Source of the DNA: a phage
Direction: 5' to 3' (one strand)
Sequence record: PZ445524.1
Length of the DNA stretch: 64,000 bases
Each line of letters starts with the position of its first letter. Positions within the stretch are counted from its first letter, which is position 1. The notes below the pieces were generated by a model, which made no database searches, was not told the origin of the DNA, and saw nothing but the letters and a program-made list of their open reading frames with translations. The translations under genes were made by a program, and so were the position numbers. Below, piece by piece: positions 16,924 through 44,587 of the stretch.

Positions 16924-17394
16924 TTAATCATGTTTCCACACCCCATCGGTATTTGACCAAAGCCGCTGATTATCTGATCCTCGCCACAGCTTTTTAGTCG
17001 GAAGATTTTTCTCATACTTCCCATCAATAATAACATCAACATATTTAAGCATTTCTAGTTGTTTAATATCTTCAAACTTATATCCAGTCCACAACCAAAT
17101 GCTTTTATTGGGATAAAGATTTTTTACTGTTTGAACAATGCAATGAATAACATCTCGGTTATCAGGATAGAGAGGGTCACCTCCGGTTATAGTCAATCCT
17201 TCTATATAATCATTATTCAAACATTCAATTAATTGTTCTAGTGTTTCACCAGTGAATGGAACGCCATTTCTAGCATTCCATGTTGATTTATTATAACACC
17301 CTTCACATTTATGCAAACAGCCTGTAACGAAAAGAACGGTCCTGCAGCCAGGACCATTAATAAAATCGCAAGGATAAAATCTATCATAATTCAT
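16924..17394 (-). CDS. nrdG: Anaerobic ribonucleotide reductase activating protein NrdG (radical SAM)
   Basis: 156 aa with a radical-SAM-type cysteine cluster (CLHKCEGC); same length as T4 NrdG. Confidence 0.93.
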   Translation of the reverse strand: MNYDRFYPCDFINGPGCRTVLFVTGCLHKCEGCYNKSTWNARNGVPFTGETLEQLIECLNNDYIEGLTITGGDPLYPDNRDVIHCIVQTVKNLYPNKSIWLWTGYKFEDIKQLEMLKYVDVIIDGKYEKNLPTKKLWRGSDNQRLWSNTDGVWKHD

Positions 17395-19208
17395 TGGTGT
17401 TTAACCCTATGCATGATTTCTTTATTTTTGCCGAGATTAAATCCGCGTTCGTTCGGATTTCCCAAATAACCACACGTTCTTCTTATTGTGTTCATCTTTT
17501 TAGGATCAGTTTCTCCACAAATAGAACAAACAAATCCGTTTTCAGTAGGAGTCATTTCATGGGTACTTCCACATGTAAAACATTTATCTACTGGCATATT
17601 AACACCAAAATAATCTAAATGTTGTGCAGCATAATCCCACACGGCCTCAAGACCTTTCAAGTTATTTTTCATATCAGGAAGTTCAACATAAGAAATGTGA
17701 CCACCTGTCGCAATGAAATGATATGGCGCTTCACGAGAAATCTTTTCAAACGGAGTAATATTTTCTTCTACTGAAACATGGAAACTGTTAGTGTACCAAC
17801 CTTTATCGGTAACATCTTTTACGCTTCCATATTTTTCTGTATCGAGTTTACAGAAGCGATAACAAAGGTTTTCAGCAGGAGTCGAATATAAACTAAAAGC
17901 AAATCCAGTTCTTTCAGTCCACTGTTTAAGACGAGCATTCATTTTAGTTAAAATTTCTCGTCCAATATCACGACCGGCAAGAATATTCAATTCGTGAATA
18001 CCAATGTATCCTAAAGACACTGAACTTCTACCGTTTTTAAATAACTCAATTATGTCGTCATCAGGTTTAAGACGAACCCCGAATGCACCTTCTTGGTAAA
18101 GAATAGGAGCAACAGTAGCTTTAACTCCTTTTAAGGAACTAATTCTACACATCAAAGCTTCAAAACATAAATCCATTCGTTCATTAAATAGCTCAACAAA
18201 TTTCTGTTCATTGAACTGTGTTCCAATATAAGAATCTAACGCGATGCGAGGAAGATTCAGTGTTACAACACCAAGATTATTACGTCCATCAAGAATTTCA
18301 TTACCAGTCGAATCTTTCCATACGCTCAAGAAACTACGGCATCCCATCGGAGAAACAGGAACAGATGAACCAGTGATAGCTTTATTGTTCTTAGCTGAAA
18401 TAATATCAGGATACATCCTTTTGCTTGCACACTCTAGAGCAAGCTGCTTAATATCATAGTTCGGATCATCTTTATAAAGATTAACACCTTCTTCGACGAA
18501 CATAACAAGCTTAGGGAAAATAGGAGTTATCCCATCACGACCAAGACCTTTAATACGATTTTTCAGAATTGCTTTCTGAATCATTCGTTCAGTCCAGTCA
18601 GTTCCCGTACCAAATGTAATTGTTACAAAAGGTGTTTGCCCGTTTGAACTAAAGAGAGTATTTACTTCATATTCATAAGCTTGGAATGCATCGTATACGT
18701 CTTTTTCTGTTTTAGATTGAGCATAATTCAACGCATCAGCGATTTGCCATTTTTCTGCATCTTCAATATGTTTTGCATAGGTGCGTTTAACATAAGGAGA
18801 AAGTACTTTATCTACATTCGCAAAAGTCGTTCCGCCGTATTGGTGAGAAGCAACCTGTGCAGTAATTTGTGCCATAATTGCAGTAGCAACACCGATTGAT
18901 TTAGGAGTTTCAATCTGCGCATTACCAAGCTTAAATCCGTTCTCAAGCATTCCTTTTAAATCTACTAAACAGCAATTAGTAAATGGAAGAGCAGGGGAAT
19001 AATCAATATCATGGAAATGAATAATTCCGCTTTCATGCGCTTTCATAATAAAAGACGGGACCATATTTTTGGCAATGTGTTTAGACACAATACCAGCCAT
19101 AAGGTCCCGTTGAGTTGGAAAAACACGAGAATCTTTATTAGCATTCTCGTTTAAAAGGTCTTTATTAGTTTTATGAATCAATCCTTCAATTTCTTTTTCA
19201 ATTGTCAT
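17391..19208 (-). CDS. nrdD: Anaerobic ribonucleoside-triphosphate reductase NrdD, uninterrupted
   Basis: 605-aa continuous ORF; C-terminal glycyl-radical region (RRTCGYLGNP) and zinc-ribbon cysteines. Confidence 0.95.
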   Translation of the reverse strand: MTIEKEIEGLIHKTNKDLLNENANKDSRVFPTQRDLMAGIVSKHIAKNMVPSFIMKAHESGIIHFHDIDYSPALPFTNCCLVDLKGMLENGFKLGNAQIETPKSIGVATAIMAQITAQVASHQYGGTTFANVDKVLSPYVKRTYAKHIEDAEKWQIADALNYAQSKTEKDVYDAFQAYEYEVNTLFSSNGQTPFVTITFGTGTDWTERMIQKAILKNRIKGLGRDGITPIFPKLVMFVEEGVNLYKDDPNYDIKQLALECASKRMYPDIISAKNNKAITGSSVPVSPMGCRSFLSVWKDSTGNEILDGRNNLGVVTLNLPRIALDSYIGTQFNEQKFVELFNERMDLCFEALMCRISSLKGVKATVAPILYQEGAFGVRLKPDDDIIELFKNGRSSVSLGYIGIHELNILAGRDIGREILTKMNARLKQWTERTGFAFSLYSTPAENLCYRFCKLDTEKYGSVKDVTDKGWYTNSFHVSVEENITPFEKISREAPYHFIATGGHISYVELPDMKNNLKGLEAVWDYAAQHLDYFGVNMPVDKCFTCGSTHEMTPTENGFVCSICGETDPKKMNTIRRTCGYLGNPNERGFNLGKNKEIMHRVKHQ

Positions 19209-33974: not shown

Positions 33975-34318
33975 TTAGTACTCAATCCTCGATTATAAGA
34001 ATCTACCAAACGGTCAACCATTGAATGACAAGCGGCTTTATCTTTCTCCTCCGCAACTGAACATTCTAAGGTATTCCACTTTTTAGCATATCGTTTTAAT
34101 AATGTATCGTTTTTGTATCTGCTTGATTTATCTCTTTCTCCGTCTTTATATGCATATATTAATTTCTGTGCAAATTCAGCTTGGCATGCTTTATTTTTCC
34201 CACAATAATCTGCCGCAGTGCGGTTTACATATTCTCTAATTTCAGTATATGATGTATCTGCTGACGCAGAAGCAGAAAATGAAATTAATCCTATACATAA
34301 AACCAAAATTTTAGTCAT
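33971..34318 (-). CDS. Secreted small protein (vs position)
   Basis: 115 aa with signal peptide MTKILVLCIGLISFSASASA; lies immediately downstream of the SLT-like gene. Confidence 0.45.
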   Translation of the reverse strand: MTKILVLCIGLISFSASASADTSYTEIREYVNRTAADYCGKNKACQAEFAQKLIYAYKDGERDKSSRYKNDTLLKRYAKKWNTLECSVAEEKDKAACHSMVDRLVDSYNRGLSTK

Positions 34319-34856
34319 TTACTATTTCCAAAAGTTTATTATTTTTAAGGTAATTAGCCTTTTCTAGGACTTCAGAAGCATATTTAGAACCAGCTTTAAC
34401 ATTCCATCCCGAATTATAAGAGGATATTGCTTTTCTTATATCGCCCTTATGTATATTTAACCAATAAGAAAGTTCAATGTACGCCCAGGAAGCTGAATTG
34501 GATCGTTTATTCAACATTCTTTTTATTTCAGCATCGGTCATATTATAACCAAGTTCCTTAACTCTTGCTCGCATAGTAGGCAAATAATTTTGGAACATTC
34601 CGTAGGCGTGATGCTTTGGTTTAGATTTTAAATTAACTCCGCCAGAGCTTTCTTGCCATAAAATAGCAGCCATTATATGACCTAATCCGCTCTTGTGGAT
34701 ATTTTTGTGTGTTTTATATTTTCCATCCTTAGAAAATTGTTCCCCGAATTGATACGCGTAACGCATGTTATCGAGTTGGACATTACTGAAAGTATGCTCG
34801 GAGCTATGTGCCATCATTGAAATGGCCAATAGACCAGCGAGTAGTGCTTTTCTCAT
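34311..34856 (-). CDS. Secreted protein with lytic-transglycosylase-like motif
   Basis: 181 aa with signal peptide; ILWQESSGG resembles the SLT-domain E-S catalytic motif. Confidence 0.4.
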   Translation of the reverse strand: MRKALLAGLLAISMMAHSSEHTFSNVQLDNMRYAYQFGEQFSKDGKYKTHKNIHKSGLGHIMAAILWQESSGGVNLKSKPKHHAYGMFQNYLPTMRARVKELGYNMTDAEIKRMLNKRSNSASWAYIELSYWLNIHKGDIRKAISSYNSGWNVKAGSKYASEVLEKANYLKNNKLLEIVND

Positions 34857-34863
34857 GCTTACC

Positions 34864-35325
34864 TCATTGAGTTTTAATTACTGCTTTAGAAGCCTTTCCT
34901 GGTAAACGACGACTGTTGATAATTGCCATCCTACATTGAAGTGACGGGTCTTTGAACTTCGCGTTAGGTTTACAAACTGTAAATCCAAGCCAAAGATTTC
35001 CATCTGTGATTTCTAAACGTCCAGGACGATATTCAACCCCATCAATAAAATCCTCGTCAATGTCAGGACGCGGAGGCATACTCAGGAATTCATTAACTTC
35101 TAAAACATGGTCTTTTATTTTATGGAATAATTCAAAAACGTATGTCTCATCAATCTCCCGTTGAATTGCGCGATCAAGAAGATGCTGAGAATATTTTAGA
35201 TGAAACGATGAGACTCCTGCTGCTTTTGATGCCTCACGAATCTCATTGTTAATTTGACGAAACTCCGACTCAAAGTGACGACGAAGCTTATTTCGACGGA
35301 TAAAAACTTCTGTATTGATAGTCAT
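34864..35325 (-). CDS. regB: Endoribonuclease RegB
   Basis: 153 aa; matches T4 RegB as recalled (MTINTEVFIRRNKLRRHFE...). Confidence 0.9.
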   Translation of the reverse strand: MTINTEVFIRRNKLRRHFESEFRQINNEIREASKAAGVSSFHLKYSQHLLDRAIQREIDETYVFELFHKIKDHVLEVNEFLSMPPRPDIDEDFIDGVEYRPGRLEITDGNLWLGFTVCKPNAKFKDPSLQCRMAIINSRRLPGKASKAVIKTQ

Positions 35326-35384
35326 GTTATTCTCCTCTTAACTGATAGAAAAATTATACCACAGTCAAGAGGAAAAGTAAACAG

Positions 35385-35663
35385 TTATTCTTTAAATCTA
35401 ATCAATTTATTCATAGACTTTGAAACTTCTGCACGAACCTCATGTAGATTTTTGAGCTGTTCAAGACGCTGCGTATAGTAAGCAATTTCATCTTCTTCGA
35501 GACAGTCCTGTGAATCTTCTTTAAGATAACGTGCATAGTCCTGGAAAGCGTTACGAACTACTTCCTGGAAATCATCAAGACTTTGAATTTTCTTAGGAGC
35601 AGCAGATACACGACGAGGGGCAGTATAATACTCATAACCAAACCCTGCGCTTAATTGAGCCAT
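35385..35663 (-). CDS. Hypothetical protein
   Basis: Start moved to ATG 35661-35663 ([10 protein letters not shown]...), overlapping the upstream stop. Confidence 0.4.
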
Positions 35664-35959
35664 TAGTATTTTTCCTCTGGTTGGAACACTGCACGACAAG
35701 CCCACATACTGGCTTCTTTGAGTTTCGTTTTAGCAATAGTTAACTGATCGAGGCTTTCGGCGTAATTCTTCGCGAGTTCATCATCTTCACAGCTATCAAA
35801 TGCTTCCCAAAATTCATCGTATAAAGCATCAAAGATAAGTCCTAAACGAACTTCAGCGTCTTTAATAGCATTTACTTTACCGATTTTTTCGTCGGTGTGT
35901 GGCTTATAACCTTTAATATCTTCAATCATATTTGACTTCCTCACCAGTGCATAAATCAT
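35663..35959 (-). CDS. Hypothetical protein in the T4 vs.4 (Acb2) position
   Basis: Position-based only (vs.4 slot after regB). Track start is TTG; ATG at 35957-35959, or ATG at 35927-35929 which has a GAGGA SD. Confidence 0.4.
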
Positions 35960-36143
35960 ATTCAACTAAACGAATAGGTTCATGAATGCCATATCCCTGA
36001 ACAGAAATTTCTGTCGTAGGATAAATTCCATCAATATCGCCCATATTCCACGCTTCATTAAATTGCTGTTCGCCTGAATTACTAAACCACTCGGCGAAAG
36101 CATTTAGAACATCTTTAGAACCTTCAATAATTATCTTTGCCAT
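35922..36143 (-). CDS. Hypothetical acidic small protein
   Basis: 73-aa ORF; start overlaps the grcA-like stop. Confidence 0.4.
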   Translation of the reverse strand: MAKIIIEGSKDVLNAFAEWFSNSGEQQFNEAWNMGDIDGIYPTTEISVQGYGIHEPIRLVEYDLCTGEEVKYD

Positions 36144-36505
36144 TACAAACTCTCGGTGAAGGTACGAGCGATAACGTCGCGCTGCTGTTCCGGAGTCAGA
36201 GAGTTAAAGCGAACTGCATAACCGGATACACGGATGGTCAGCTGCGGATATTTTTCCGGATGCTTAACTGCATCTTCCAGAGTTTCACGACGCAGAACGT
36301 TAACGTTCAGGTGCTGACCACCTTCAATTTTAACTGTAGGCTGTGACTCAATTTCAATTTCACGGGCATGCAAACCATAGAAAATTTCTGGGTCTACAAA
36401 AGAGTCCTCTTTAAAGGTTTTAGAGACAATAATTCGTGCTTGAATACCATCTTCAAAATAAATAGTACCTTTATGTGTGCCTTCAAGAATTTGATATGCT
36501 TTCAT
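36143..36505 (-). CDS. grcA: Autonomous glycyl-radical cofactor (GrcA/YfiD-like; T4 Y06I homolog)
   Basis: 120 aa; the C-terminal ~59 residues ([60 protein letters not shown]) match E. coli GrcA as I remember it; the 3' half is visibly more GC-rich than its surroundings. Confidence 0.88.
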
Positions 36506-36512
36506 ATAAACC

Positions 36513-36839
36513 TCAATTAGAAAATAAATTTATCCAAGATTGTTCTTTAATTAAAAATGGCTCAGAATCATATGCCATTAAACTTTGCGTAATTAGTCCT
36601 TTAAAAGGCCCATCAATAAATTCCATGGTAAAATATGGAATTTTATTCATTAGCCGTGCATTAGGAGCAGTACACAAAACTCTGCATCCTTTGAATACGC
36701 CTTTTTGCAATTTGTATTGCTTAGGATAAAATTCGCTTAAAATGTTATTTTTTGCCAAAATTTCAAAATGATTCACCAATTTATTTTTAATAGTTTTTGG
36801 CGAAAAATAAAGATATTCGAAAAGCTGAGTGTCTGTCAT
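36513..36839 (-). CDS. Hypothetical protein
   Basis: Start moved to ATG 36837-36839 (MTDTQLFEY...), overlapping the upstream stop. Confidence 0.4.
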
Positions 36840-37378
36840 CATTGCATTCCGATTACGAAAAACTGTGGACGAGTAATACCACCAATACAACATTTAATAT
36901 TACAGCAGCAGTGTACAGTGTCAATATGGACACTATAAATTTTATCCATATCAGGAGATTTAACAGGCTCATCAATTATATACAAAATTCGCGAAAGCTT
37001 TAAACCTCTGAACTTGCTTCCTTTATTACCGATAAAACTGCGCACAGAATCAGTAAATAAACGAAAACGTATATCATCATTAGAATAACGCGAAAATTCC
37101 TTTTTGATGCTATTTGCAGAAATTTTAGCGTAAGCTGAAGTATTAGAAAGAACAATAACTGTTCCGCCATCATACAACCAATTAGCGGCAAAATTAGTTA
37201 CTGCAGTTGATTTACCGGATTGACGTCCACCATCTAGTCGAAGTGTGCAATACTGCTTAAGTAAGTCTTCAAATGGTGGGATATAATCGTTTTTACAAAT
37301 TTCTTCTACTCTAGCATCAGAATGGTGTGTAAAAGCATTCATCAGGGATAGATAAGGACCAGTTAAAAATGTTCTCAT
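36839..37378 (-). CDS. P-loop NTPase-like protein
   Basis: Walker A GGRQSGKST and Walker B ILYIIDE; start ambiguous (ATGs at 37426, 37408, 37378; only the last has a weak SD). Confidence 0.45.
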   Translation of the reverse strand: MRTFLTGPYLSLMNAFTHHSDARVEEICKNDYIPPFEDLLKQYCTLRLDGGRQSGKSTAVTNFAANWLYDGGTVIVLSNTSAYAKISANSIKKEFSRYSNDDIRFRLFTDSVRSFIGNKGSKFRGLKLSRILYIIDEPVKSPDMDKIYSVHIDTVHCCCNIKCCIGGITRPQFFVIGMQ

Positions 37379-37555
37379 TTTATTCTCTCTAAATTTGGGC
37401 CATTCCATGGCGCATGAATTGTCCATTTCTGTATTTACCCATTACCGCACTTGGGCTTGACCTTATTACAGGTTGGCGGGAATCCCTCACAAAATCATGA
37501 GGTCCAGGTTGTTCCCATGTTATTTAAATGTAAATAGGTCTGAGTATTCGCTTTA

Positions 37556-38134
37556 TTAGGAATTACGGGCTGCATTAGCAACGGCATACGCGTACTGAAT
37601 ATTAGCGTCTTTAAACTTACCTTTAGAGGTATCTATTTCTGCCTTAAAGCCGCCTTTAGTCATAACATCGGCAAATTCTTTACGGAAAGCCATTGCATCA
37701 AGACCTTTCCATGATGATTTATGCTTAGCAAATTCAAGACCTGCGAAGTTAACAGCCTTAGCTAATTTATTATCAATAACCCATTTACCGGCTTTAGGCA
37801 CAAACTTCGGGCCTTTCTGTTTAGAGAACAGTTTTAAATTCCAGCGGCGAAGGTCTGCATCAGCTTTAACAAATTCTGAGTCTAAGTTACTAGCAACAAC
37901 ATCTTCAATATGAGCAAATTTAAGTCCGTCAACTTCAATATTTAAATCGGTACGCCAGCGAAGTCCTTCCCATGCGAAGGCTTTAAAGTCGGAAGCCTTT
38001 GTAGCTAAGTACCGTTCAATAGGAGCTGTTTTAGGGTCAAAGCCGTTTCCCGATCGGTAGGTCCACTCATCTTTGTTAATGCCTTTGGCCTTTACTACAG
38101 AAGCTTCGGCAATAAATTCTTGATATGTTTTCAT
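37556..38134 (-). CDS. ipIII: Internal protein III
   Basis: 192 aa beginning with the capsid-targeting leader MKTYQEFIAEA. Confidence 0.8.
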   Translation of the reverse strand: MKTYQEFIAEASVVKAKGINKDEWTYRSGNGFDPKTAPIERYLATKASDFKAFAWEGLRWRTDLNIEVDGLKFAHIEDVVASNLDSEFVKADADLRRWNLKLFSKQKGPKFVPKAGKWVIDNKLAKAVNFAGLEFAKHKSSWKGLDAMAFRKEFADVMTKGGFKAEIDTSKGKFKDANIQYAYAVANAARNS

Positions 38135-38150
38135 GCGTTTCCTTTAATTT

Positions 38151-38468
38151 TTATTCTTTAGGGAAGTTTTTAGAATATGCATCATAAAGCTTATTTCCAA
38201 TACGGCGGAAAACTCTAGCCGCAAAACGATTTTCTGGGTTTTTAATCATGATTTGCATCATATAAGTACCCGCGTCAGAAAGAGCTTCTTCATAGTACCC
38301 GTTAATTTCTTTAAGAGTCCTACGTTTACCACCAGGACCATCAACAGTGATTTTCCATTTACCTGTAGAAGTGCGACTTGGCGGCTCAACTTGTTCAATC
38401 CAAATATAACCGCCTTCTACACGTTGTCCTGCAGCAGATTCTGCAATAAATTCTTGATATGTTTTCAT
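38151..38468 (-). CDS. ipII: Internal protein II
   Basis: 105 aa beginning MKTYQEFIAES. Confidence 0.75.
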   Translation of the reverse strand: MKTYQEFIAESAAGQRVEGGYIWIEQVEPPSRTSTGKWKITVDGPGGKRRTLKEINGYYEEALSDAGTYMMQIMIKNPENRFAARVFRRIGNKLYDAYSKNFPKE

Positions 38469-38556
38469 GTGTTTCCTTTAAATATTTTAATTAGTAATTT
38501 GTCTCTTCAAGCAACTGTGAATATACTATCACAATTCTAGGAGAAAGTAAACAACT

Positions 38557-39087
<531 letters not shown>

Positions 39088-42818: not shown

Positions 42819-42897
42819 TTAAAATCCTTGAAATAATTTATTGGTTATTAATTATTTATTATTGTAACAGCATTCTCCGAGTGATTCAAACTAAAAA

Positions 42898-42919
42898 GCC
42901 CCAACCTTTCGGTCGGGGC
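42898..42919 (-). terminator. Intrinsic terminator closing the tRNA/stable-RNA operon
   Basis: mRNA GCCCCGACC-GAAA-GGUUGGGGC then UUUUU. Confidence 0.55.
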
Positions 42920-42925
42920 TAAGCC

Positions 42926-43236
42926 TTGCGGCAACCTTGTCGGGGTTCCACCTGCTAAGGCAAGTGTTTGTACGAAACGCCGGGACTTGAACCCGGTTAT
43001 TGAGTAGTTGACGCTACTCAATATTTTTAAAAGGCCATATCTCGACCATATCCGAACGTTCCGTCAAAAACGCTACTCGGCTTATGGCAAAGATATTTCC
43101 TCGAATCGATAATTCGGTGCGCCGTTTCTGCTGTGATGTAAGGGGATATTAACAAATCGTAAAGATTTATTAAGACCAGTCCTTACTCAGGGAACATCAG
43201 TCCGACGACTTACCGGTAGCGACCCGGTTTCTTGTC
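42926..43236 (-). ncRNA. Stable small RNA region downstream of tRNA-Arg (T4 rnaC/rnaD equivalent), boundaries unresolved
   Basis: No ORF; lies between tRNA-Arg and the terminator; contains a 9-bp hairpin and a T-arm-like GGGTTCAAGTCCC element. Confidence 0.4.
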
Positions 43237-43313
43237 TGGTCGAGGCAGAAGGATTCTAACCTTCAACCTACGGATTAGAAATCCGTTGCTCTATACAATT
43301 GAGCTATGCCCCG
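43237..43313 (-). tRNA. tRNA-Arg (anticodon UCU), CCA encoded
   Basis: Cloverleaf built by hand: acceptor CGGGGCA/TGCCTCG, anticodon loop TTTCTAA, T-loop GTTAGAATCC. Confidence 0.85.
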
Positions 43314-43316
43314 TAA

Positions 43317-43982
43317 TTAAAATTTCATTTTTCGACCTTTAAACCATCCTTCTGGAATTGGGTCAGTTTTCTTAATACGTTTAGAAACTTTTTCATCTAA
43401 TGAATGAATCCACATCATACCAAATTGGGAATTCTTTTCGCCCTGTTGATGTTTATTTCTGGCGTGAGATTCTTTCATTTTATTAATAGTTTCAGGAGTA
43501 TGATGCTTATTTAAAAATCTGCTATTATTTAAAAATTTTTCCCTGTATTCAGGAGTTGACCACAAGCGTTTAAATACATTTGAACCATGTTTACGATATT
43601 TTTCTTGAAGTAAAATATCATTTTTAAAACGTGACTTAAACGATTTAGCTCCTTTTAAGCTAGCATCTTTCTTCTGGTTTAGCATCCCAGGAATATTTAC
43701 ATGATCCCATCCACCTTCACCACCAAGTTTTAAATTATACACATCTGGTCTATTTAAAAACTCTTCTGTGACAATATTTTTCTCGGCTTCAAGCATAGAT
43801 TCTTTATCATCAAAATACTCTAATATTTCTTTAGAAAAATTTTCTATACCATATTTATCTTGGGCTCTTTTTAATAATTTACCAGAACCCATATATCCAT
43901 CATCTAAATTTTCGGTAGAATGCGCACCAATATAAATTTTATTATTAATTTTATTTGTTATTTTATAAGTGTAATGGAACAT
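43317..43982 (-). CDS. segB: GIY-YIG homing endonuclease SegB
   Basis: 221 aa; GIY-YIG motif (YTYKITNKINNKIYIGAHST); sits between tRNA subclusters as in T4. Confidence 0.85.
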   Translation of the reverse strand: MFHYTYKITNKINNKIYIGAHSTENLDDGYMGSGKLLKRAQDKYGIENFSKEILEYFDDKESMLEAEKNIVTEEFLNRPDVYNLKLGGEGGWDHVNIPGMLNQKKDASLKGAKSFKSRFKNDILLQEKYRKHGSNVFKRLWSTPEYREKFLNNSRFLNKHHTPETINKMKESHARNKHQQGEKNSQFGMMWIHSLDEKVSKRIKKTDPIPEGWFKGRKMKF

Positions 43983-44023
43983 AAATATCTCCTATTTCTA
44001 AGAGTATTTATGTTCCCAAAATA

Positions 44024-44095
44024 TGGCCCTGGGTGGAATTGAACCACCATCTGGCGATTATGAGTCGCTTGCTTGAACCTTCCAGCTACAGGGCC
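44024..44095 (-). tRNA. tRNA-Ile (anticodon CAU), CCA not encoded
   Basis: Acceptor GGCCCTG/CAGGGCC; anticodon loop CTCATAA; T-loop GGTTCAATTCC. Confidence 0.8.
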
Positions 44096-44096
44096 T

Positions 44097-44172
44097 TGGT
44101 GCTGATTGACGGAATCGAACCGCCGACCTTCTCATTACAAGTGAGTTGCTCTACCTACTGAGCTAAATCAGC
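44097..44172 (-). tRNA. tRNA-Thr (anticodon UGU), CCA encoded
   Basis: Acceptor GCTGATT/AATCAGC; anticodon loop CTTGTAA; T-loop GGTTCGATTCC. Confidence 0.85.
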
Positions 44173-44174
44173 AA

Positions 44175-44261
44175 CGGAGGCGATAGGATTTGAACCTATG
44201 AGTCGCCGGAGCGACTGCCGGTTTTCAAGACCGGTGCATTAAACCACTCTGCCACGCCTCC
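44175..44261 (-). tRNA. tRNA-Ser (anticodon UGA), long variable arm, CCA not encoded
   Basis: Acceptor GGAGGCG/CGCCTCC with G discriminator; anticodon loop CTTGAAA; long extra arm. Confidence 0.85.
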
Positions 44262-44263
44262 AG

Positions 44264-44337
44264 TCTCCGCGGCAGGATTTGAACCTGCGACATTCTGCTC
44301 CCAAAGCAGACGCTCTACCAAACTGAGCTACACGGAG
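44264..44337 (-). tRNA. tRNA-Pro (anticodon UGG), CCA not encoded
   Basis: Anticodon stem TCTGC/GCAGA with loop TTTGGGA; T-loop GGTTCAAATCC. Confidence 0.85.
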
Positions 44338-44347
44338 TAAATTAAAT

Positions 44348-44421
<74 letters not shown>

Positions 44422-44426
44422 AAATT

Positions 44427-44513
44427 TGGTGCGAGAAGTGGGACTCGAACCCACAAGGAAATCATTCCGCAGCATTTTAAGTGCTGTGCCTTTACCAATT
44501 TGACCATTCTCGC
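44427..44513 (-). tRNA. tRNA-Leu (anticodon UAA), long variable arm, CCA encoded
   Basis: Acceptor GCGAGAA/TTCTCGC; anticodon loop CTTAAAA; long extra arm. Confidence 0.85.
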
Positions 44514-44514
44514 G

Positions 44515-44587
44515 CTGGGAATAAAGGACTCGAACCTTTGCATCCTGGAATCAAAATCCAGTGCCTTACCAACTTGGCTAATTCCCA
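44515..44587 (-). tRNA. tRNA-Gln (anticodon UUG), CCA not encoded
   Basis: Acceptor TGGGAAT/ATTCCCA; anticodon loop TTTTGAT; only 1 nt separates it from tRNA-Leu. Confidence 0.85.

Follow-up and report, generated by a model that had tools for sequence, protein, structure and literature searches.

The gene described here is the counterpart of phage T4 vs.6, which encodes protein Y06I, in a 64,000-nucleotide stretch of phage DNA (sequence record PZ445524.1; this whole stretch is called the window below). We consider it very probable that this gene is a chimera in which an old phage N-terminal half is joined to a glycyl-radical domain that has been overwritten by the host gene grcA, that at least two such events took place, and that the protein acts as a spare part for pyruvate formate-lyase (PFL). 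A first-pass annotation, made from the sequence of the window alone, had described a GrcA-like cofactor with a recently acquired, host-derived 3' half, and this part of its interpretation stood, whereas its suggestion that the protein rescues the phage's own NrdD did not. On the comparisons given below, the replacement is not private to the window phage, a point absent from that annotation.

It was found that residues 61-120 of the vs.6 protein were identical (60/60) to residues 68-127 of E. coli GrcA; the first-pass annotation had put the identical C-terminal stretch at about 59 residues. Every one of the 5,426 complete E. coli genomes searched had a grcA with 97.3% identity to the last 185 nucleotides (nt) of the gene, and the longest mismatch-free run, of 169 nt, was 100% identical to an E. 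coli grcA allele carried by O157:H7 PV15-279 and others. Over this tract, the synonymous divergence (dS) from E. coli was 0 over 42 synonymous sites, in keeping with the recent recombination with host grcA that had been proposed. The five mismatches to grcA were all synonymous and all lay in the last five codons, where the window reads TTC ACC GAG AGT TTG and grcA reads TTT ACT GAA AGC CTG. The guanine-plus-cytosine (GC) content was 0.503 in the 169-nt run, compared with 0.337 in the rest of the gene and 0.349 across the window, and the GC content of third codon positions (GC3) was 0.20 before the junction and 0.45 after it. The grcA alignment and GC comparison that the first-pass annotation had proposed as a check placed the junction at gene nt 179, and neither an ordinary level of identity nor a uniform GC content was found. 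The chimeric pattern was thus present at the positions first given, and well outside what chance would produce. Only 0.3% of 169-nt segments in the 64 kb reached the GC content of the tract, the others lying in a tRNA cluster and an adjacent RNA-like region.

Upstream of the junction, no meaningful DNA similarity to grcA was detected. The N-terminal half was ~33% identical in amino acid sequence to GrcA over residues 22-60, and residues 1-21 had no alignable match; the corresponding DNA is AT-rich and conserved among T4-like genera, so that the earlier description of this half as phage-like was accurate. A sharp change of identity and composition within one open reading frame (ORF), together with host-identical synonymous sites, is the pattern looked for as a sign of intragenic recombination.

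A likeness of this kind might be attributed to convergent codon usage and purifying selection without any transfer, given that the radical domain is extremely conserved at the protein level across hosts and phages and that grcA uses host-preferred codons. The identity of 42/42 synonymous sites over 169 nt effectively refutes such an explanation, to which we give next to no credence. Homologs from Slopekvirus and RB43 had 97-100% amino acid identity in the radical domain at only 80-82% nucleotide identity, and therefore protein-level selection cannot explain the tract; Karamvirus homologs were 76-81% identical in DNA, and that of Karamvirus CC31, which is unconverted, had AT-rich third positions and a dS greater than 1 to any host. 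Furthermore, Klebsiella phages matched Klebsiella synonymous variants and not those of E. coli, and a megablast search of the whole 64-kb window against the 5,426 E. coli genomes gave no match besides the tract. The homologs of Slopekvirus/RB43 type that we labelled L094-L100 had a GC3 of ~0.45 in the radical domain, and the pattern in this group could represent either an old, ameliorated conversion or a strong protein constraint.

The origin of the tract was evaluated by comparing the last 180 nt of the gene with grcA from 80 bacterial species (among the matches listed) and with vs.6 homologs from 80 viral contigs and 16 named phages. The identity was 97.2% to E. coli, 95.6% to another Escherichia species, 90.6% to Citrobacter and less than 87% to Salmonella, and this falling off with host phylogeny points to a host origin. 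In a neighbour-joining (NJ) tree of the tract, Tequatrovirus and Mosigvirus were placed inside Escherichia with a bootstrap value of 271/300, and unconverted phage homologs stood apart. The two parts of the gene had incongruent phylogenies, in that the tract grouped with the host and the 5' half with phages, the identity of the latter being 0.99 within Tequatrovirus, 0.88 to Mosigvirus and 0.72-0.74 to Jiaodavirus. The genes pflB and tdcE were rejected as donors, because they were only ~81-83% identical.

Near identity alone gives no direction, and E. coli and Klebsiella might conceivably have received the 3' half of grcA from T4-like phages. However, host grcA had a uniform GC3 across its two halves (0.43/0.45 in E. 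coli and 0.54/0.67 in K. pneumoniae), had congruent dS in both halves across Escherichia, Citrobacter, Salmonella and Klebsiella, and was located in conserved ung-grcA synteny. The compositional break was confined to the phage genes, in which GC3 went from 0.20 in the 5' half to 0.45 in the tract for E. coli phages and from 0.25 to 0.60 for Klebsiella phages, compared with 0.15 to 0.24 for unconverted phages. The GC content of the tract (0.50, and 0.56-0.57 in Klebsiella phages) matched that of the host genome and not that of a phage with 35% GC. Because host grcA is uniform and congruent and the phage tracts nest within host clades, the direction of transfer is, as judged from these alignments and trees, from host to phage. 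No evidence of phage-to-host flow of the grcA segment was seen in this comparison of host and phage genes, and we regard the reverse direction as extremely improbable.

The tract was common to at least 600 Tequatrovirus and Mosigvirus records. About 624 phage records were at least 95% identical to the 3' half of the window gene, whereas for the 5' half 482 records were at least 95% identical and 152 were 80-90% identical, the latter including the sampled named Mosigvirus phages. We inspected a 165-nt tract in 17 E. coli phages (10 Tequatrovirus and 7 Mosigvirus), and found 0-6 mismatches per 165 nt to E. coli grcA, with the same 5' junction in 17/17 (AAA ATT / GAA GGT GGT, the slash marking the junction). 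Tequatrovirus and Mosigvirus thus carry an E. coli-type tract, whereas Karamvirus homologs are unconverted, with 31-43 mismatches per 165 nt. Over the 70 Tequatrovirus-Mosigvirus pairs, the mean dS was 0.437 in the 5' half and 0.094 in the tract, and between the window and PhAPEC2 there were synonymous differences at 13/38 sites in the 5' half and 3/42 in the tract (Fisher p = 0.004). The tract was the best-conserved segment of the 2.5-kb neighbourhood between the two genera. In the unconverted pair CC31 and L090, by comparison, the dS was 0.51 in the tract segment and 0.195 in the 5' half. The dS of the tract, being far below that of the 5' half, indicates that the tract postdates the divergence of the genes in which it lies.

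A second form of the replacement was found in Klebsiella phages of the genus Jiaodavirus, of which we examined W15-2, Roth20, 15882-3 and one IMG/VR contig. The 5' half of the gene in these phages was 72-74% identical to that of the window, the tract had a GC content of 0.56-0.57, and the tract boundaries were the same as in the E. coli phages. There were 3-10 mismatches per 165 nt to K. pneumoniae grcA, taken from CP125156.1 (a 5.37-Mb chromosome labelled as a plasmid in PLSDB), versus 17-21 to that of E. coli; the grcA genes of these two hosts differ from each other at 19/165 tract sites. The encoded sequence contained the Klebsiella-type ETLLDAVEH, where E. coli has ETLEDAVKH. In the NJ tree, the Jiaodavirus tract grouped with K. 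pneumoniae and K. aerogenes, with bootstrap values of 112/300 for K. pneumoniae plus Jiaodavirus and 149/300 when K. aerogenes was included, which are modest because the tract is short. A Klebsiella-type tract in Jiaodavirus requires a separate event besides the one that gave the E. coli-type tract. Therefore, on the basis of these sequence comparisons, there have been at least two host-to-phage replacements of the same domain, each matching the host of the phage.

Several other observations were made on Klebsiella and on additional phage groups. Between W15-2 and Roth20, the tract dS (0.245) was greater than the 5'-half dS (0.11), which is the opposite of the E. coli phages and would fit conversion by different Klebsiella species or alleles. 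The grcA gene of K. aerogenes NCTC10006 (LR134122.1, from PLSDB) contained a homopolymer frameshift that is probably an assembly error. The jumbo Klebsiella phage vB_Kpn_AM_K4 (288 kb) has a grcA-like gene 86.8% identical to the tract. In other phage groups (T5-like phages, jumbo phages and Pasteurellaceae-like metagenomic contigs), the identity was at most 84% to any host in the comparison set. An apparent Yersinia-matched case, IMGVR_UViG_2706794630_000006, which was 91% identical to Y. artesiana grcA, was rejected because its flank encodes ung, indicating that it is bacterial (Yersinia-like) ung-grcA DNA filed as viral.

The vs.6 ORF encodes 120 amino acids followed by a TAA stop codon that overlaps the ATG of the downstream vs.5-like ORF (TAATG). 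It aligned base for base with T4 vs.6 (NC_000866 63557-63919), a locus annotated as "autonomous glycyl radical cofactor GrcA", with at least 95% nucleotide identity and in the same context (vs.8-vs.7-vs.6-vs.5-...-regB). The first-pass annotation had named Y06I as a homolog; it is in fact the ortholog, and the two proteins differ at 2/120 residues (S54P and R73H). Over the full gene, ~490 records were at least 95% identical, and phages Pinarejo and phiD1 were 99.2% identical.

The host-derived tract encodes the glycyl-radical domain (EGGQHLNV...RVSGYAVRF...ARTF), with the radical glycine within RVSGY. The protein gave a match to Pfam PF01228 Gly_radical over residues 60-101 (E 2.4e-18, 67.1 bits against a cutoff of 22.2), and its residues 22-120 matched the solution NMR structure of GrcA (PDB 6OWR) with an E-value of 9e-42. 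Residues 58-120 aligned with residues 697-759 of PflB (E 4.6e-26, ~78% identity). These are the features of the GrcA/YfiD family, namely a small (~14 kDa) stand-alone protein that ends in PF01228, contains the RVSGY motif and has about 60 C-terminal residues like PflB 700-759. The best NCBIfam model was TIGR04365 (spare_glycyl), but the score of 154.7 bits fell short of the curated cutoff of 170, owing to the divergent N-terminal half; E. coli GrcA scored 234 and the unconverted CC31 homolog 157. By sequence, the protein therefore belongs to a phage subfamily (PHROG 1209, phrog_1209, which covers it over its full length) and is not a strict equivalog.

The gene and its role are already known from T4. 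Experimental validation as a "spare part" exists for two proteins, T4 Y06I and E. coli YfiD (Wagner et al. 2001, PMID 11444864, as summarised in PMC8683613). In each case, the PFL activating enzyme (PFL-AE) installs the glycyl radical, after which the protein binds O2-cleaved PFL and restores its activity. Because of its near identity to Y06I, we infer that the window protein shares this function and would be radicalised by PflA and restore O2-cleaved PFL.

The partner proposed by the first-pass annotation was instead the phage's own NrdD, for which the protein would provide a spare radical domain activated by NrdG. Both NrdD and NrdG were located in the same window, as had been stated, and NrdD is a glycyl-radical enzyme that is cleaved by O2. 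Spare parts for other glycyl-radical enzymes have been a subject of speculation (PMC8683613). However, the best BLASTP alignment of the vs.6 protein to the NrdD of the window had an E-value of 3.9 and left the radical motif unaligned, whereas the domain is of the PFL/GrcA type, being 100% identical to host GrcA and ~78% identical to PflB 697-759. T4 Y06I works on PFL with PFL-AE, vs.6 is ~17 kb from nrdD and nrdG, and repeated replacement by a host PFL-specific allele makes sense only with host PflB and PflA as partners. The link to NrdD was thus not supported, and we think it very unlikely.

A model that brings together these results, in which PFL is the partner, would have the phage make the vs.6 protein after infection and the host activase PflA install the radical on the RVSGY glycine. 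The protein would then dock on host PFL from which O2 has cut off the C-terminal radical domain, restoring activity and keeping fermentative energy metabolism running under micro-oxic conditions. As for the gene, the AT-rich N-terminal half would come from an old phage-lineage grcA homolog that is common to other T4-like genera, and the ancestral phage gene would have been ~80% identical to host grcA only in the conserved radical domain, as CC31 is today. Most likely, 165-169 nt were replaced by recombination or gene conversion with chromosomal grcA of the host in the infected cell, and conversion would be limited to the one region of the gene in which phage and host sequences are alike enough for pairing. 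The junctions would lie where EGGQHLNV begins and, at the other end, a few codons short of the stop, because the homology needed for pairing ends there, the 3' limit being set by the stop codon, which overlaps the start of the following phage gene. A converted segment has full homology to host grcA, and so further exchange should be easy. T4 recombines efficiently with homologous non-phage DNA, as in plasmid marker rescue and with insertion/substitution vectors; T-even phages also degrade the DNA of the host, and their own contains modified cytosine.

Within the E. coli phages, there has probably been repeated exchange with E. coli, on allele and 3'-edge hints that are suggestive and not conclusive. 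Two tract sites are polymorphic in E. coli grcA, host codon 71 (CAG/CAA) and host codon 80 (CGT/CGC), and variation among the phages is found at these very sites (phage codons 64 and 73). Five of the 17 phages were identical at 165/165 positions to an E. coli allele that exists today, and two such alleles were represented. One is CAG/CGT, a minority E. coli allele as judged from its spread among the matches listed, which is found in the window; the other is CAA/CGT, which is found in G8, L085, PYps5T and L088. In Jbel, a single mismatch separates the tract from CAA/CGC. In the last five codons, different phages have different mixtures of host-type and phage-type synonymous variants. A reading of these variants as nested 3' endpoints was rejected: four haplotypes fit it (PPPPP, EPPPP, EEPPP and EEEPP), but the inclusion of more phages gave a mosaic (EEPPE, EEPEP and EEPEE).

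Because all of the E. coli phages share one 5' junction, it is possible to picture a single ancient acquisition in the ancestor of Tequatrovirus and Mosigvirus, followed by slow evolution or phage-to-phage spread and without repeated exchange with E. coli. Most of the phages also share CAA at codon 64 and GAG at codon 118, and a Mosigvirus subclade shares a derived CCA at codon 91 and TTG at codon 97 that were apparently inherited vertically. On the other hand, a shared junction is expected anyway because the DNA homology ends there, the tract dS between the two genera is roughly five times lower than the 5'-half dS, and the unconverted lineages give no sign of an intrinsic synonymous constraint on the segment. 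The identity of five phages to different extant E. coli alleles also argues against this explanation, and Jiaodavirus needs a separate Klebsiella-derived event regardless. We regard the single acquisition as unlikely, although it retains an appreciable chance of being correct.

Some points weigh against our preferred interpretation of vs.6 as a host-converted chimera with a PFL spare-part function. The case for recurrent exchange within the E. coli phages falls short of proof, and a single acquisition followed by phage-to-phage spread could look alike. Phage codon 73 has four states (CGT, CGC, CGG and CAT, the last of which is the R73H of T4), and therefore the polymorphism shared with E. coli at this site could be recurrent mutation; the 3'-edge variants do not form a clean nested series. 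Tequatroviruses isolated on Yersinia and Salmonella still carry an E. coli-type tract, which is also in line with a single acquisition and means that tracking of the current host is not automatic. To these may be added the modest bootstrap values for Jiaodavirus and the shortfall against the TIGR04365 cutoff. The recombination mechanism is itself deduced from the pattern of junctions and identity, and the function of the window protein is carried over from T4 Y06I, with its two residue differences.

We put forward tentatively, and with somewhat less than even confidence, the broader idea that the radical-domain half evolves in concert with the host gene, being re-copied from whichever enterobacterium the phage replicates in. 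If this is true, the extant E. coli or Klebsiella allele would differ from phage to phage and the tract would record recent host use, and selection would keep the spare part matched to the PflB/PflA pair of the host. It would also mean that there is ongoing host-to-phage gene conversion in strictly lytic phages that contain hydroxymethylcytosine (hmC) and degrade host DNA.

The positions of the features are given in Table 1. Codon 54, six codons upstream of the tract, is hypervariable: it encodes Ser in the window and Pro in T4, and Thr, Gln, His, Tyr or Asn in other near-identical phages. A scan for promoters and terminators around vs.6 gave results no better than shuffled controls. The window phage is a Tequatrovirus and not T4 itself, and the closest public match to positions 34000-39000 was VEc74, at 96.7%. 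This 5-kb neighbourhood (34000..39000) is mosaic among Tequatroviruses, with 96.7% as the best overall identity versus 99.2% for vs.6. In Salmonella phage Lv5cm (MZ150757.1), there were two vs.6 matches within one record. A stretch with a GC content of at least 0.50 at 42895..43067, which adjoins a tRNA-Arg gene, had no tRNA or Rfam match and probably corresponds to the small stable RNAs of T4 (species 1/2).

Table 1. Positions in the window of vs.6, its parts and the other features mentioned in the text.
Feature	Positions	Strand	Basis
vs.6 (Y06I) ortholog, 120-aa GrcA-like autonomous glycyl-radical cofactor	36143..36505	-	ORF list, T4 locus annotation, Pfam, PDB, PHROG
Shine-Dalgarno sequence GAGG, 5 nt before the ATG	36511..36514	-	Read from the sequence
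Phage-type 5' part, gene nt 1-178 (codons 1-59 plus 1 nt)	36328..36505	-	Composition, alignments
Codon 54 (Ser in the window), hypervariable	36344..36346	-	Phage alignment
Host-derived tract, gene nt 179-347, 169 nt	36159..36327	-	Exact match to E. coli grcA
Ragged 3' edge, last five codons plus stop (TTC ACC GAG AGT TTG TAA)	36143..36158	-	Alignment
NrdD	17391..19208	-	
NrdG	16924..17394	-	
tRNA cluster, eight genes	43237..44587		

What appears to be new here is that the radical-domain half of vs.6 is a verbatim and recent piece of the host chromosome, and that different phage genera carry the allele of their own host. In the literature searched (including PMC2993671 and PMC9697503), there was no report of a host-identical, host-matched and repeatedly replaced vs.6 domain, although an earlier remark in older papers is possible. 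T-even phages are generally regarded as well shielded from the DNA of the host, and vs.6 would provide a clean, datable and experimentally testable case of homologous host-to-phage gene conversion, with hundreds of genomes available for a population analysis of the tract. The tract may be useful as a host-tracking marker, and the gene may serve as a natural test of how closely a spare part must match the enzyme that it repairs.

The nearest known system is T4 Y06I itself (vs.6, NP_049730), the ortholog located between vs.7 and vs.5, which is likewise 120 amino acids long and a chimera with an E. coli-type 3' half. The window tract has 0 mismatches per 165 nt to E. coli, whereas T4 has 2, one of which is R73H; the window carries the minority E. 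coli allele CAG at codon 64, and it has the phage-type TTC ACC GAG where T4 has the host-type TTT ACT GAA. E. coli GrcA (YfiD; 6OWR; TIGR04365) has the same arrangement of a variable N-terminal region and a PFL-like radical domain, in addition to the identity over the C-terminal 60 residues and 169 nt. In contrast to GrcA, the window protein is 7 residues shorter, is divergent in its N-terminal 60 residues and falls below the equivalog cutoff, and its gene resides in a lytic phage and has phage codon usage in the N-terminal half. The unconverted vs.6 homologs of Karamvirus CC31 and PG7 (PHROG 1209) and of T5-like phages belong to the same family, with the same length and position and a homologous N-terminal half, but their radical-domain DNA is AT-rich (GC3 0.22-0.30) and 75-81% identical to any host grcA, and they have phage-specific residues such as TKETLEDAVQH.

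Intragenic recombination between host and phage in auxiliary metabolic genes is a known kind of process, described for the cyanophage genes psbA and psbD (Sullivan et al. 2006, PMC1484495; see also Zeidner et al. 2005, as cited in PMC1484495). As in vs.6, a phage copy of a host metabolic gene has a patchy GC content and host-exchanged segments, and clusters by host range. The exchange in vs.6 differs in that it involves one sharply bounded domain that is 100% identical to an extant host allele, and in that it is found in hmC-containing T-even phages of enterobacteria, with the same boundaries in separate genera that infect different hosts.

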